Virus record (IMG/VR): IMGVR_UViG_3300021400_000062
Location: 32,136 to 96,135 of that record
Direction: 5' to 3' (one strand)
Source: a virus
Lineage: Duplodnaviria; Caudoviricetes
DNA: 64,000 nucleotides
Position 1 is the first letter of the stretch. Each line of letters starts with the position of its first letter. Below are positions 4,971-50,808 of the stretch, one piece after another. Below the pieces are notes generated by a model. That model was not told where the DNA came from, did not search any database, and was given only the letters and a program-made list of their open reading frames with translations. Made by a program: the position numbers and the translations under genes.

Positions 4971-5002
4971 CAAAGATATAGAATTTATCTTTAGCCACCA
5001 AG
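4971..5002 (-). promoter_or_regulatory. Bacteroidota sigma-A type promoter inside an inverted repeat
   Basis: TATCTTTG (4971-4978), 20-nt spacer, CTTG -33 box; flanked by 13-bp IR 4954-4966/4999-5011. Confidence 0.65.
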
Positions 5003-5029
5003 GACTTTAAGAAATTATTAAGATGCTAA

Positions 5030-5947
5030 TTAAGCAATCTTTGGAAGAGCATTAACAGCAGTTGCAATGGTTGTGAGTGTAGCCTTGCTTGCTTCTGGAG
5101 TTACAAAGATAGCATCACGCTCACTCTTCTGAACTTCATCATTGCCACCAACAAATGCATAATGAACAGCAAGAACAGCATATCCAGTAGCATCGCTTGC
5201 ATTTACATAGAGGTCTGGCTTGATGTTGTCTGGCCAACCAGCAAGAGCATTGGAGTTTCCTCTTTCACCCTTTGCAAAGAGCTCAAGGTCTGCAATCTTG
5301 TGGGTGTTAGGAATCGTTGTGTTGCCCTCTGCAAACTGCTTTGTTACAAGCCAATCATTATCCTCTGCGCCAGAAACGATTATTGGTGTTGTACCAACCT
5401 CAATTGTTGCAGTTGTTTCGGGGAAAGAACCAAGCTCCCAAGTAGGAGTAGCCTCAACAAGCTTGAAGCCAGCAGAGAAATCGGTGGATGCATCCTCAAG
5501 TGTAGCCTTGCTTGTTACCTTGCTGCCATCAACATAGATATCAAACAGTGGCTCTACCTCAACACCTCTCTGGAGCCAAGCATTGATAGCAAGGGCCCTA
5601 TAAAGGTCTGTATCGGTTGTACTCTTTGCTTTTGCAGCAATAATCTTTGTGGTAACATCCTCTTGACCAAAGCCACGGAATGTGAGACCAATAATATACT
5701 CCTGACCAGCAATCACCTTTCCATTTTTAACCGTGATTGTAAGCTCCTTGAGCTTCTTTGTGTCATCACCAGCAGCAACAACTGCCGCAGTACCAATTAC
5801 ATTCTTGATAACATCGGTGGTTTCAATCTTACCATCAGCATGAGTGATAGCATACTGAACGGCACCAGAAGGAGCAATGTTACTACCAAGAGTAGCACCT
5901 GTCTCAAGAACGTAGAGCTGAATTACTTGATTTGTAGAAAAGTTCAT
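5030..5947 (-). CDS. Auxiliary capsid (decoration) protein
   Basis: MNFSTNQVIQLYV N-terminus, IADLELFAKGERG motif; synteny downstream of MCP. Confidence 0.7.
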   Translation of the reverse strand: MNFSTNQVIQLYVLETGATLGSNIAPSGAVQYAITHADGKIETTDVIKNVIGTAAVVAAGDDTKKLKELTITVKNGKVIAGQEYIIGLTFRGFGQEDVTTKIIAAKAKSTTDTDLYRALAINAWLQRGVEVEPLFDIYVDGSKVTSKATLEDASTDFSAGFKLVEATPTWELGSFPETTATIEVGTTPIIVSGAEDNDWLVTKQFAEGNTTIPNTHKIADLELFAKGERGNSNALAGWPDNIKPDLYVNASDATGYAVLAVHYAFVGGNDEVQKSERDAIFVTPEASKATLTTIATAVNALPKIA

Positions 5948-41376: not shown

Positions 41377-42330
41377 ATGAAAAAGATAAATGAAATATTC
41401 TTTGCTAAAGAAGGAGAAAAAGGTATAACTTCATCATCAGCAAACTATCTTGCAAACATAGCAACAGAGTTGCTTGAATCATTTAACAATAATATAAGAA
41501 ACATTTCATTCATTGATAAGAATGTATCTATTGTTGGTAGTGATTCAAAATTGCTTGCATCAAAAGGCATGACACTGGATAAGTTTGAAAATATTCCAAT
41601 AGCAATAGATGAGGCTGCAAAACTTTATGCATTTGTTGCATATATCAGGGAAGCAATCAAAGCCAAGGAAGATGAGATTTCTACAGCAAAGAAATATTCT
41701 TTCAACGACTGGCTTATTGACAATGATATTACTCTTGAAGAATATCCAGAACAGCCAGCAATGCCACTTGTACCAGAACCTGTAACGCAAAATGATGTTC
41801 TTGAAAGCTGGAGCATTGCTGAAAGAAATCTCTACTGGCAATATGAAGCAGTAGCATCAACTTATGGTAAACTAATCCATAAAGATGGTGCTATAAATAT
41901 TGCAAGGGATAGTATGAAGCAGATGCTTGCAAATCCTGTAACAACACTTGGTTCTGGAAGAGATACTACTGTATATTATTACAGTGAAAGTGTTCCTGAA
42001 GAAAATGTTGAAAAAACATTTCTTGAACTGCAAAACACATACAGGATTGCAGAAAAGAGCCTTAACAGTCTTAAGTACAGAATCAAGGAAGAAATGAATG
42101 CTCTTGTCCTTGAGAGAGAAGTAGAGTATAAAGCCTCACTTGATGAGTACAAGAAAAATCTCTTTGAATTCAACAAGGAAGTAGAAGAGATAGATAATAA
42201 CAAGGCTGAGCTTCAGGGTAAATACAGGGAATATCTTACAGAGCTTGTAAACAAAACAAGCAAACTGAAGATTGTTATCCCTAACGCACTGACAGGAATC
42301 TTTTATAAGCTTGATAGCGTTGGAAAGTAA
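41377..42330 (+). CDS. Long helical/coiled-coil protein of unknown function
   Basis: 317 aa; GITSSSANYLAN, IREAIKAK, GKLIHKDG, LKIVIP motifs; followed by 380 nt structured non-coding DNA. Confidence 0.75.
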   Translation: MKKINEIFFAKEGEKGITSSSANYLANIATELLESFNNNIRNISFIDKNVSIVGSDSKLLASKGMTLDKFENIPIAIDEAAKLYAFVAYIREAIKAKEDEISTAKKYSFNDWLIDNDITLEEYPEQPAMPLVPEPVTQNDVLESWSIAERNLYWQYEAVASTYGKLIHKDGAINIARDSMKQMLANPVTTLGSGRDTTVYYYSESVPEENVEKTFLELQNTYRIAEKSLNSLKYRIKEEMNALVLEREVEYKASLDEYKKNLFEFNKEVEEIDNNKAELQGKYREYLTELVNKTSKLKIVIPNALTGIFYKLDSVGK

Positions 42331-42334
42331 CACT

Positions 42335-42686
42335 AAAGGAATAGTATCGCATAACCTAAAATTTAACTAAGTTAAATCCGAATCACAGTATGCGCAAATA
42401 TGATGCGATACTATTCCTTTTTCTTATATATTGGGTAATTAAGGACAGAGCCGAATAGTGTAAAACCTTAATGTATTATATTATATATTCTGAATTAGAA
42501 TAAATAAATTAATTACAAATGTTAATCTATTTTACTCGCCGTCAATAACCCATACAATAATCATTTTGAGCCTTTGACTTCAAGTGGTTATTGGCGGGTC
42601 TTTGGCTTTAACATTGTCTTTGACTTTGTGCAGAATAATAATATAAGCTCAATTGCTTATGGGAGAGTGAAATCTCCCATAAGTCC
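42335..42686 (+). ncRNA. Candidate structured RNA downstream of the coiled-coil gene
   Basis: Stems 42335-42352/42403-42420, 42539-42550/42586-42597 and 42656-42683; NCTTTG hexamer run. Confidence 0.55.
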
Positions 42687-42710
42687 TAATAACAATAAAA
42701 TAACAGTAAT

Positions 42711-42911
42711 ATGAAAAGTAAAATCAAAGATTTGATAATATGGATATATATAATAGTATCCATATTATTCTGGATAGTATTCATAGCAGGCATAGAATCT
42801 ATAGTTGAATCAAATCTGTTTATATGGTTTGCAATAATAGCAGCTGTTGATATAGGGCTTGCAAAAGCCCTTAATATCATATCATTCTATGAAAAGAATG
42901 ACTATCTTTGA
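42711..42911 (+). CDS. Small two-TM membrane protein
   Basis: 66 aa, hydrophobic. Confidence 0.6.
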   Translation: MKSKIKDLIIWIYIIVSILFWIVFIAGIESIVESNLFIWFAIIAAVDIGLAKALNIISFYEKNDYL

Positions 42912-43315: not shown

Positions 43316-43580
43316 TTGTAGAAATAGGGTGTGTGGAGAAGTAAGCAAAACAGATTAATCCATAGTAAGAATATAATAATACATGTTTTTTTTCTTTTTG
43401 GGGTATGCTCTATATTTTGTTTGTTCTTACTATGGATTAAATTTGTTTTATCAATTGGTATAACTATTGTTTTATTATGTTTAACCTTTAATTTTAAGTC
43501 TGACAATAAAAGTTATCACAAAAAATCTACAATAGTTATACAAGGTGTTCAAAAATATTTATATCTTTGAGCACCAAAAC

Positions 43581-48231: not shown

Positions 48232-50808
48232 ATGAAAGAAAAATACGAATTGATTGGTAGTGGTGATTCCGTTCATCTTATCAGAAAATATAAGAAGCAT
48301 TGGTGGAGCAGGTGGCAGATTGAAATGGATGGCGCCACACCAAAAATATACCTTGTAGACCAAGAGAAATGTATTCACGACTATAAGTTCATTGAAATTG
48401 TGTATACTGTATCTTTTCCTGCTGGAGTTCCAATGCGTCTCTTAAGATGTGCAAAATGTGGGCACGAAAGAGTTTCCCGTCTTTAACAAAAAAGGGGAGG
48501 AACATCAATGAAAGCACCAGATAAGATTTATGTTCATGTAAGAACAGAGCCAAGACCAAGTATCACTTTTAGTGAAGCTCAGGAGGAAAATTCCTCAAAT
48601 GTAGAATACATCAGCAAGGACGCACTGCTGGGGTGGGCAAAAACAAAACTATCCCACCTTCAAGAAGATTTTGATGTATATACAGGGCAGCGGCTAATCC
48701 TTCGAGAGTTAATTGAAAAAATCAATGCGATATGACAAGAGATAAAGCAATTTTAGTATTAAATAGTCTATTAACTTGGCTTGGTTACGAAAGACCTATT
48801 ACAGAAGAAATTGTAGAAGCAATTAAAACCATTTCCAAACCTTATCTTCCCTCCAACATTGACGATGCGGCAGAAGAATATGCCTATAATAATTGGGAGG
48901 ACAATGACTATCACACGGGCGCAAGCGAAGGCTTACCATTTGATGCAATCGGACATACTGAAAAGTGTTTCAAGGCCGGTGCCGAGTGGCAACGGGAACA
49001 GGATAGCGAAACAATTGAGCTTGCTGAAGACCACGCAATATTGGCCGGGATGATGAAGGAACGGAAACAGATGCTGAAAGATGCGGTAGATGGAGAAGTG
49101 GTTTCCGACTTAAAAGGTGTGAACTATGTTCGTTCAATGAGTAAGATATCAGATGATTTGCGTTTTGGTAAAAAGGTTAAACTAATAATCATAAAGAAAG
49201 AAGAACAATGAGTGATTATATTTTAAGACTTGATGAGATAGACAAGTGGTTATTTGATTCATTTGGTATCCTTTCTGGGTGTTGTAGTTCACAAGAAAAC
49301 CTACGATACACAACAGCAAAAATGGTTGCTGAAGCATTGTGGCCAAAGAAAGACCTTGGTTGGCATTCAGTAAAAGAATCATTACCTCCAATAGACGAAG
49401 AAGTGATTGTGCTTACCGATGAAATCAATGGAAAGATTGTTCCAAATGCACATAAAATATGCTATGGACACAGACCTAATCTTGATGGGTGGAATGGGAA
49501 AAATATTGATACCGGCGAGATAAAACATTATGATGTTGTAACATATGATGGATGGAATATTCCCGGAGTAACACATTGGATGTATTTACCAAAACTAACA
49601 GATGAAGAATAATGACGCTATTAGATTTATATAAAAAAGTAAAACGCATCGGCGAGTATTTTAACTCTGCTGATATTCCACTTAAATACAACGGCAATGA
49701 CTTTAACATTGATTTTGAATTTGAGTCTAAAGATGCTATTGTTGACCATATAGAAGTAAAGCTAGACGTTGCGTTATCATGGGAGGATGTTAAAACCATA
49801 TTTAAGATAGCCGACAATTATGAAAGCGAACCAAATAGACCAAAATATCTTACACAAGTCTATTGTCAAGAGATTTTAAACAGATTTAATGAACAGAGAC
49901 AGAAATAAAAGCTGGAGAGACATATATAACTATGAGTGGAGATAAAGTATGGGTGTTTCTGCCCGAAACACAGAGGATAGCAAGGGCAACAATAATTGTG
50001 GAAAATCGGAGCTTACAATCAGTGATAGTCCGCCTTGATTATAACGGAGATGAAAGAGTTTTCTACAAGAATTGGTCTTGTTTCAAGACAAGGAAGGCTT
50101 TATGTGAGCATTACAGGAAAATATTTGAATAAAAAGTTTATGACACGCAAAGAAATTCTACAATTCGGCAAAGAAATAGCCGACAAGTTCTTCCATAAGA
50201 AACATCAGAAAGAAGTAACAGTAAAAGGCTTTGTCGCAAGAGACAAAGATGGTAGATTATTTCTATATAATGAAAAGCCTATCAAATATAATAGTATATG
50301 GATAGGCGATGGGTTCTCGCTACAAATTGATTTATTGCCCCAAATTAAGTGGGAGGATAAAAAGCCAATACCAGTAGAGATTACTATTAAATTAAAATAA
50401 TATGAATCCTGTAAAAATCAGACATATAAAATGGTTGATTGGAAAAGATGATTATTATAGAAACAGGGCAATTCAAATGGGCGAGCTCATGGGAACTTGG
50501 ATTGCTGAACTATCTCTTTCCAAAATGCAGAGCAAGGAATACTATAGTGCGTTGAAGAAAAGAAATATGTACTCACAAAGACTGTTGTGGTATATAAAGA
50601 AATACCGTAGCAACAACTATGATGAAATAAAAGATTTTAATACGTAGGATATGATACTGAATATATTACTAAAAATAATAATAGCAACTGTGTGTTTAGC
50701 AGCAATTCTTGCGCTGATACTTATAATATGGGCCGGCTTTTATGTACATAATGGTGGTGAAATAAACATATCTTATGACAGAGAAGATAAAAAACCAAAA
50801 GAGGAATG
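48232..50808 (+). CDS. Run of small hypothetical genes (48232, 48508, 48732, 49208 DUF551-like, 49612, 49932, 50140, 50402, 50651)
   Basis: Abutting ORFs; 49208 has WHSVKESLP..VTHWMYLPKL; 48732 has FKAGAEWQ. Confidence 0.6.

Follow-up and report, generated by a model that had tools for sequence, protein, structure and literature searches.

What occupies the 380 nucleotides (nt) without an open reading frame (ORF) that follow the gene of a 317-residue protein, here denoted F0, in a crAss-like phage, and does this segment work together with the gene? The stretch of DNA analyzed (the window, 64,000 nt) corresponds to bases 32136–96135 of a complete 96,135-bp virus genome with direct terminal repeats (IMG/VR record IMGVR_UViG_3300021400_000062). 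The gap contains a conserved element that is almost certainly an undescribed structured RNA working with the F0 gene. The portal, large terminase and major capsid proteins of the phage match crAss-type PHROGs, and the major capsid protein is ~45% identical to the capsid proteins of Steigviridae (IAS virus, cr112_1). The phage is therefore a divergent member of the Crassvirales. In the gut of humans and animals, few viruses are more abundant than these phages, and nearly all genes of their early regions have no assigned function. The F0 locus is located ~4 kb inside a plus-strand block, presumably the early region, and ~0.9 kb upstream of a cluster of three transfer RNA (tRNA) genes.

The original prediction, made from the letters of the sequence, described a 317-aa ORF followed by 380 nt without an ORF, and both are present. 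The sole ORF of at least 40 aa in the gap (42331–42710) is a 46-aa TTG frame, and recoding of TAG as Gln or of TGA as Trp reveals no hidden ORF there. A blastn search of the region against GenBank phages gave no match. The predicted folding energy of the gap was compared with that of shuffled sequences. A z of −8.0 was obtained for the plus strand (0 of 100 shuffles as good) and a z of −5.25 for the minus strand.

Homologous loci were collected from IMG/VR (80 loci), from GTDB genome assemblies (80 loci) and from two GenBank phage records. Most of the GTDB loci come from phage-sized contigs that were binned with metagenome-assembled genomes (MAGs) of Bacteroidales, and three come from isolate assemblies. 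About 150 homologous loci were compared, for which the identity of the F0 proteins is 26–48%. A long ORF-free stretch is found 3′ of the F0 homologue in every IMG/VR locus. The gaps were read by eye, and the stems were then located by script. In the common plan that emerges, a short hairpin after the stop codon is followed by the 5′ arm of a long-range helix (P1) and by an A/U-rich part that often holds a small hairpin. The 3′ half consists of a second helix (P2), the dinucleotide GG, an outer array of hexamers and the 3′ arm of P1. In the relatives P1 is 13–23 bp long and P2 is 9–13 bp long, and the loop of P2 holds an inner hairpin and then an inner array of two to three hexamers just 5′ of the P2 3′ arm. 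The GG directly 3′ of the P2 3′ arm is nearly invariant and precedes four to five hexamers. The two arrays are 19–28 nt apart and out of register. The whole element measures ~170 nt in the window (42476–42646) and 170–290 nt in the relatives.

None of the 45 non-identical IMG/VR relatives lacks P1, P2 or either of the arrays, and the sequences of the helices are wholly different among lineages. Each helix was compared with 200 dinucleotide shuffles in 18 lineages; in most of them it beats at least 198, and the homologous P1 does so in 15 of 16 other lineages. In the new GTDB set, P1 is individually significant in 16 of 42 loci and marginal in about twelve others; the median distance from the F0 stop codon to the start of P1 is 46 nt.

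A covariance model (R1) was built from nine sequences for the P2 helix only. Exactly one plus-strand match per locus was obtained with R1 in all lineages, including those outside the model building. In the R1 alignment, P2 is 97.3% paired and 10 of 10 pairs change on both sides; such values occur in none of 500 shuffles, and the paired fraction in slid controls is 30–51%. When R1 was applied to the 96-kb genome of the window, the sole credible match was obtained at the element (68.7 bits, E = 1.8e-13). A second model (R2), built without any of the 80 GTDB loci, was then applied to them. Exactly one match (E ≤ 1) was found in 70 of the 80 loci, always on the plus strand and 100–240 nt after the F0 stop codon, with no other match in 426 kb on both strands. 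The ten R2-negative loci comprise seven with a divergent copy recognizable by eye, one that is truncated and two that are unclear. For 45 GTDB loci, P2 is 96.9% paired and all 10 pairs covary (0 of 500 shuffles); slid controls over both alignments are 26–55% paired.

The original prediction was to be given up if homologues lacked a conserved downstream structure or hexamer run. It survived this comparison, since nearly every locus examined has P2 and the arrays in the same place and on the same strand. The proposed search against Rfam was also run, and no family matches the element. At the gathering threshold, only tRNA, transfer-messenger RNA (tmRNA) and one group I intron were detected in the whole window and 12 relatives, none of them on the element. 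In E-value mode, the best Rfam 15 match for window positions 42250–42800 is a plant microRNA model, with 23.6 bits against a gathering score of 60. Full-text literature searches returned no description of the element or of F0. These sequence comparisons establish a new and widespread structured element that is tied to F0 and works in a plus-strand single strand. The covariance model for the element is ready for use.

The features of the locus in the window are collected in Table 1.

Table 1. Positions of F0 and of the parts and flanks of the element in the window
Feature	Position	Strand	Description
F0 gene	41377–42330	+	ORF, 317 aa; conserved partner gene of the element
Hairpin P0	42335–42427	+	18-bp stem, 50-nt loop, then TTTTTCT; terminator-like, lineage-specific
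P1 5′ arm	42476–42492	+	Long-range closing helix; A/U-only here, 1-nt bulge
P2 5′ arm	42539–42550	+	From inverted-repeat scan; all 10 pairs covary in two alignments
Covariance-model match	42534–42627	+	P2 and both arrays; model R1
Inner hexamer array	42569–42581	+	GCCTTTG ACTTCA; 3′ part of the P2 loop
P2 3′ arm	42586–42597	+	One U:G pair
Outer hexamer array	42598–42628	+	Five G-N-Y-N-U-N units
P1 3′ arm	42631–42646	+	From minimum free energy fold and comparison with relatives
Flanking hairpin	42655–42684	+	11–12 bp, GTGAAA loop, no U-tract; lineage-specific

The anatomy given in the original prediction is retained in part. The 12-bp stem with one G:U pair is present and corresponds to P2, for which only 1 of 200 shuffles is as good. 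The hexamers TCTTTG GCTTTA ACATTG TCTTTG ACTTTG were likewise read correctly (42599–42628). This run provides the best period-6 match genome-wide, with a score of 23 in 96 kb on both strands and at most 21 elsewhere. The stem and the hexamer run are conserved, whereas the 18-bp stem and the 11-bp hairpin, which had been counted with them, are lineage-specific flanks. The closing helix P1 and the second, shorter hexamer array inside the P2 loop had been overlooked. In the minimum free energy (MFE) fold of the window, P1 is formed by helices 42476–42484/42638–42646 and 42486–42492/42631–42637.

The two flanking hairpins exist as described. The arms of the first (42335–42352/42403–42420) are 100% complementary with 50 nt between them. 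Directly 3′ of this hairpin is TTTTTCTT, a detail that was absent from the original prediction. With its 18-bp stem and TTTTTCTT tail, the hairpin at 42335–42420 resembles an intrinsic terminator; the loop is 50 nt long, and the site is not called by a consensus scan. Beyond the window, P0 is found only in the 93%-identical relative L003 (loci are designated by L numbers), with one C:A mismatch, and a different short hairpin occupies its position after the stop codon in distant relatives. The second hairpin (42656–42666/42673–42683) is perfect, with a 6-nt loop and no U-tract. In L003 (~775–805), nearly all bases of both arms of this hairpin differ from those of the window and the flanks are nearly identical. 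The pairing and a GTGA(A/T)A loop are kept despite the exchanged stem and the ~93% identity between the two phages, which suggests cassette-like replacement or strong diversifying pressure. Membership of this hairpin in a genome-wide family of GTGA loops was considered and is unsupported by a genome scan.

Several further features of the window were recorded. A near-duplicate of the P2 5′ arm (CAATAATCATTT) is located within the P2 loop at 42555–42566 and provides an alternative partner for 42582–42593. The MFE fold favors this alternative helix over the P2 pairing, and it may be a lineage-specific switch or the result of chance. An 8-nt match between the outer array and the A-rich 5′ part was noticed by eye in the window only, and the idea was dropped. 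A period-6 runner-up (score 20) at 49694–49723, inside the ORF at 49612–49908, shares the 10-mer CTTTAACATT with the element, probably by chance. Long stems are also found near the tRNA cluster, at 43355–43371/43424–43440, 43438–43470/43529–43561 and 43657–43669/43729–43741. Two of the three are perfect (17 and 13 bp), their A/U-rich loops are 52–59 nt long, and one stem exactly spans the spacer that separates tRNA-Met from tRNA-Gln. In design they resemble hairpin 42335–42420, from which they differ in sequence, and they could be processing stems.

The hexamers obey a strict grammar. Position frequencies after P2 were determined from 36 + 45 sequences, and the counts given here are for the 45 independent ones. 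In the outer array, G appears at positions 1, 7, 13, 19 and 25 in 40–45 of the 45 sequences and T at positions 5, 11, 17 and 23 in 41–45. Positions 3, 9, 15 and 21 are occupied by a pyrimidine, with a single purine among 180 cells, and the positions between the fixed G, Y and T vary freely. The repeat unit is G-N-Y-N-U-N. A G, a pyrimidine and a U thus recur every 6 nt over four to five units in 81 sequences, and the arrays are located outside P1 and P2.

When the hexamers are read as codons (GNY TTN), a V-F-D-F-like peptide results in every lineage. This coding reading was rejected after inspection of L005, L012, L021, L032, L036, L048 and L062, in which an in-frame stop codon is located 0–9 nt upstream and no start codon precedes the run. 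A small ORF or leader peptide was rejected as well: none appears under TAG = Q or TGA = W, and the "third positions" are pyrimidines in all but one case. The near absence of purines from these four-fold degenerate positions also speaks for a constraint at the nucleotide level. In GenBank, a 58-aa hypothetical protein (XHH63432.1) is annotated across the element of bajarodcaudo virus 1 (PQ006092.1; L084, 3918–4094). This coding sequence is probably spurious, given the covarying structure and a 51-bit model match.

Other identities for the repeats were considered and rejected. The consensus of boxA is GCUCUUUAACAA-like, and GGCTTTAACATTG is found in the window; the relatives differ at this place, with GACTACGGCTTC and GTTATTGATATT as examples, so a boxA/nut site was discarded. 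The Bacteroides −7 promoter motif is TAnnTTTG; with a period of 6 nt the repeats read TGnnTTTG, or TA plus three bases, and do not fit that motif. Mimicry of an anticodon loop was set aside because the base after the hexamer G is not restricted to purines. Type III toxin–antitoxin systems of the ToxIN type carry ~36-nt tandem RNA repeats upstream of an endoribonuclease toxin gene. Here the units are 6 nt long and downstream of the gene, and F0 has no toxin-like fold or family match, although a missing fold match alone does not exclude a toxin fold for F0.

The strand in which the helices form was addressed by the mismatches that they tolerate. A mismatch was counted as an isolated non-Watson–Crick position with two Watson–Crick pairs on each side, a criterion that treats both strands alike. 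The helices hold 31 isolated G:T mismatches and 2 A:C mismatches. For P1 of the new set the numbers are 20 and 1, respectively, and for P2 alone the ratios in two sets are 25:1 and 23:6. A plus strand rich in T and G could yield a G:T bias of ~2:1, not 15:1. P1 encloses 170–290 nt and therefore cannot be extruded as a cruciform from duplex DNA, and the orientation of the element is the same as that of the surrounding genes in every copy. Because of the G:T excess, the non-extrudable P1 and the uniform orientation, the pairing appears to have been selected in a plus-strand single strand. The simple reading is that this strand is RNA, with displaced plus-strand DNA as the formal alternative.

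The spacing of the genes bears on how this RNA would be made. P1 starts 12–50 nt after the F0 stop codon in most loci, and a tRNA or tRNA-like gene starts 8–14 nt after the P1 3′ arm in L048, L054, L058 and L067. Upstream, the distance to the F0 start codon is 18 nt from the end of a tRNA in L067 and 26 nt from the end of a tmRNA in L048. Since these distances leave little room for promoters, we infer that a single precursor transcript most likely includes F0, the element and the neighboring tRNAs.

The neighborhood of the F0 module holds additional features. Phage tmRNA genes adjoin it in L048 (2578–2960), L074 (4618–4998) and L070 (4627–5197); in L070, a group I intron match (4974–5197) abuts or interrupts the tmRNA match. 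The tRNA-like genes at L048 (4138–4207), L056 (4144–4212) and L060 (2292–2361) are found 9 nt after the element and are assigned a two-base "anticodon" by ARAGORN, meaning that the anticodon loop is one base short. The homologue in L058 is called as tRNA-Pro with an insert. In L012 (4180–4352), and also in L004–L039, L036, L096, L100 and L102, another conserved segment without an ORF, ~170 nt long and absent from the window, comes after the element. This segment ends in an intrinsic terminator (GAGTGG...CCACTC followed by T8), has no Rfam match and may be a separate small RNA. Finally, L021 (4150–4430) carries an insertion of ~260 nt relative to its sister lineages in place of the small hairpin after the element.

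The linkage between gene and element was examined by all-versus-all BLASTP of the plus-strand ORFs of 14 representative lineages, covering 2.5–3 kb on each side of the locus. The sole common family is F0, and flanking gene families are common only within close groups. Each genome has a single copy of the element, always located 100–250 nt 3′ of the F0 stop codon. PQ006092 and MT836666 contain F0 as well as the element, and neither was found in the genomes of crAss001, crAss002 and phi14:2. The only match in a covariance-model scan of phi14:2 has 25 bits and is located inside the terminase gene. Gene and element are kept together while the flanks change, and the gene-plus-RNA unit that had originally been proposed is therefore well supported, by linkage in 14 lineages and by covariation. 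As judged from sequence, the pair acts like a module of two parts within surroundings that are otherwise fluid. Its first part is the F0 family, with at least 1214 clusters at 50% identity, and its second part is a covariation-supported RNA; both are absent from Rfam and Pfam.

The F0 module was also detected in a closed MAG chromosome (L165, OZ007033.1, 3.3 Mb) and in the isolate assemblies of Phocaeicola sp. HCN-6420 (L160, a 387-kb contig), Bacteroides cellulolyticus Sanger_22 (L104) and Muribaculaceae Isolate-036 (L145). The crAss-like phages in these assemblies may be integrated or stably carried. The isolate assemblies are candidate experimental systems.

Homologues of F0 were obtained by a word-indexed search (91 homologues) and by an exhaustive profile search, which gave the clusters counted above. 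Nearly all are 280–320 aa long, and none is informatively named. No match to F0 was found in Pfam, PHROGs, NCBIfam or the PDB sequence profiles. An AlphaFold2 model was obtained with a mean predicted local distance difference test score (pLDDT) of 84.4 and a predicted template modeling score (pTM) of 0.56. In this model F0 is predicted to consist of two helix/β-hairpin/long-helix units, one of which includes a 58-residue helix. The helical character assigned to the protein is borne out by the long helices, and the two small β hairpins show that it is not helical throughout. A Foldseek search of the PDB gave nothing below an E-value of 0.03, and a search of BFVD gave only one uncharacterized phage protein (A0A6J5N6M1). 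A wide VIA-align search returned coiled-coil segments with Z ≤ 6.5, and the ESM Atlas adds nothing on F0. Weak OmpH-like matches, which are coiled-coil noise, account for the database name "outer membrane protein". Approximately 8 of the ~30 conserved columns of F0 are Arg or Lys. Residues R91, K95, R223 and K298 are invariant, and K97, R150, R177 and K233 are nearly so, together with H168 and Y153. Homology of F0 to g002 or g004 of phi14:2 was considered, and none was found.

We tentatively favor the reading, which rests on sequence comparison, that the element is a multivalent protein-binding RNA platform with F0 as its preferred ligand. The element would be a structured RNA domain in a plus-strand 3′ extension of the F0 message, so that gene and RNA form one functional module. 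P1 would close the domain, and P2 would hold two single-stranded G-N-Y-N-U-N arrays, with two to three units in its loop and four to five after its 3′ arm. A platform of this kind is the most economical mechanism for arrays in which every second base is specified and which a helix presents. Each hexamer would take up one unit of an oligomeric or polymerizing protein, so that the arrays form a multivalent docking site. F0 would be the leading ligand candidate. The result of binding would be a protein–RNA particle or feedback on how stable the F0 message is or how strongly it is expressed. F0 is favored as the ligand because it is the sole constant neighbor and would be made from the same transcript, and it is a candidate only on the grounds of this linkage. 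The conserved basic residues of F0 agree with this reading. If F0 binds the repeats, the module would be a new kind of phage protein–RNA particle.

Several points weigh against this platform reading. The F0 family is acidic (pI 5.0–6.8), and no known nucleic acid- or RNA-binding domain, fold or family was recognized in F0 by the sequence and structure searches. In the window itself P1 is weak and by itself not significant, being matched by 41 of 200 shuffles, and ungapped P1 alone is nonsignificant in approximately half of the GC-richer lineages. A terminator-like hairpin is located between F0 and the element in the lineage of the window. The comparative data demonstrate the structure, its covariation, the plus-strand asymmetry, the repeat grammar, the single copy and the strict linkage to F0; that the element is transcribed, that a protein binds it, which ligand this is and what binding leads to are inferred. 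The linkage could equally fit a purely cis-acting 3′ untranslated region (UTR) or a shared host target.

A more specific version, possible though doubtful, is that F0 and the RNA constitute a new phage ribonucleoprotein with one protomer per hexamer (a "rule of six") on a two-helix scaffold. The role of the ribonucleoprotein would lie early in infection, such as countering a host defense that targets RNA or tRNA. If it exists, a very large proportion of gut Crassvirales-like phages would carry it.

It is unlikely that the RNA is instead a decoy or sponge that titrates a conserved host RNA-binding factor early in infection, with F0 acting in the same pathway without touching the RNA. The factor could be ribosomal protein S1, an RRM-type Rbp protein or a Bacteroidales ribonuclease; to our knowledge, Bacteroidales lack Hfq, ProQ and CsrA. 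Were the repeats bound by a host factor, the element would point to an unknown Bacteroidales target. The grammar of the repeats is invariant across phages binned with MAGs of Muribaculaceae, Prevotellaceae, Porphyromonadaceae and Bacteroides, which fits a conserved host ligand, and the acidic nature of F0 and the location of the element within an early, tRNA-rich region are consistent with titration. Abundant early noncoding RNAs are made by phi14:2 (10.1101/2020.03.07.982082). A sponge leaves unexplained the constant placement after the F0 stop codon amid changing surroundings; no host homologue of the element is known to us, and one published RbpB test motif, GUAGGAUA, is unlike the hexamer (10.1101/2021.04.27.441718).

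The element could also be a purely cis-acting 3′ UTR domain, in which P1 and P2 block 3′ exonucleases or provide a processing site and the repeats have no dedicated reader, but this is rather unlikely. The F0 message would survive or be destroyed after excision of the neighboring tRNAs, as in retroregulation of the λ sib type. The conserved position right after the stop codon and the length of P1 (13–23 bp) agree with such a role. F0 is found within tRNA/tmRNA arrays, where processing would leave F0 and the element as one fragment. A helix alone suffices for a stabilizer, however, and the arrays, with alternate bases kept in 40–45 of 45 sequences, and the two-helix layout are left unexplained.

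A function in DNA is quite improbable. The element would then be a replication origin or a single-strand initiation site with iteron-like hexamers, an AT-rich unwinding segment and F0 as the initiator, and the helices would form in displaced plus-strand DNA. A gene beside direct repeats, an AT-rich segment and inverted repeats in a single copy is the classical layout of a replicon, and plus-strand single-stranded DNA would tolerate G:T pairs too. The 6-nt period does not match the helical repeat of DNA, and helices that enclose 35–290 nt cannot be extruded from a duplex. Conservation is strongly asymmetric between the strands, and the orientation parallels transcription in every locus. The repeats of an iteron origin are strand-symmetric duplex repeats beside an initiator gene, and the mismatch counts (G:T 31 and A:C 2; G:T 20 and A:C 1) do not fit them. 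Searches showed the acidic F0 to be unlike any initiator, helicase or HUH protein.

That the gap is an ordinary spacer, with an F0 terminator, a promoter for the next genes and chance hairpins, is very improbable. The first hairpin and T-run of the window are terminator-like, and consensus scans show no excess of promoter-like or terminator-like sites here. In several lineages the next tRNA is too close for a promoter to fit in between, the repeats are at odds with the −7 motif of Bacteroides, and the conserved, covarying architecture of ~150 lineages contradicts this reading.

The element was also compared with known systems. Iteron origins share with the element a single copy, a gene beside direct repeats, an AT-rich stretch and inverted repeats; they differ from it in that the element has a 6-nt period, G:T mismatches far in excess of A:C and helices that enclose up to 290 nt, and F0 resembles no initiator. 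In phi14:2, two abundant early noncoding RNAs, whose function is unknown, are located at the g004–g005 and g005–g006 junctions (Drobysheva et al., 10.1101/2020.03.07.982082). They are the nearest precedent found in the literature. Like the element, they occupy a long ORF-free stretch in an early, rightward-transcribed Crassvirales region, and they have been shown to be highly transcribed (10.1101/2020.03.07.982082). Unlike the window, phi14:2 has neither F0 nor the element, and its RNAs are not homologous to the element. As in λ int–sib, a structured RNA right after the stop codon of a phage gene could control that gene from its 3′ side; sib is a single RNase III hairpin without repeat arrays, unlike the element.

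Parallels in design are provided by RNAs that present short repeated motifs to a protein. The 11-mer TRAP binds the trp leader at (G/U)AG motifs every 5–6 nt, the HutP site holds UAG repeats, and the sponges CsrB and RsmZ hold GGA repeats. The unit G-N-Y-N-U-N matches none of these motifs, and the arrays of the element flank the 3′ arm of a helix and are mutually out of register. The element is located 3′ of its gene, unlike the 5′ leader of trp, and its neighborhood encodes no ring protein like TRAP, HutP or CsrA. What the element shares with these RNAs is short single-stranded motifs at fixed spacing beside helices. By analogy, this arrangement suggests one protein subunit per repeat, with the stem either in competition with the protein or acting as its scaffold.

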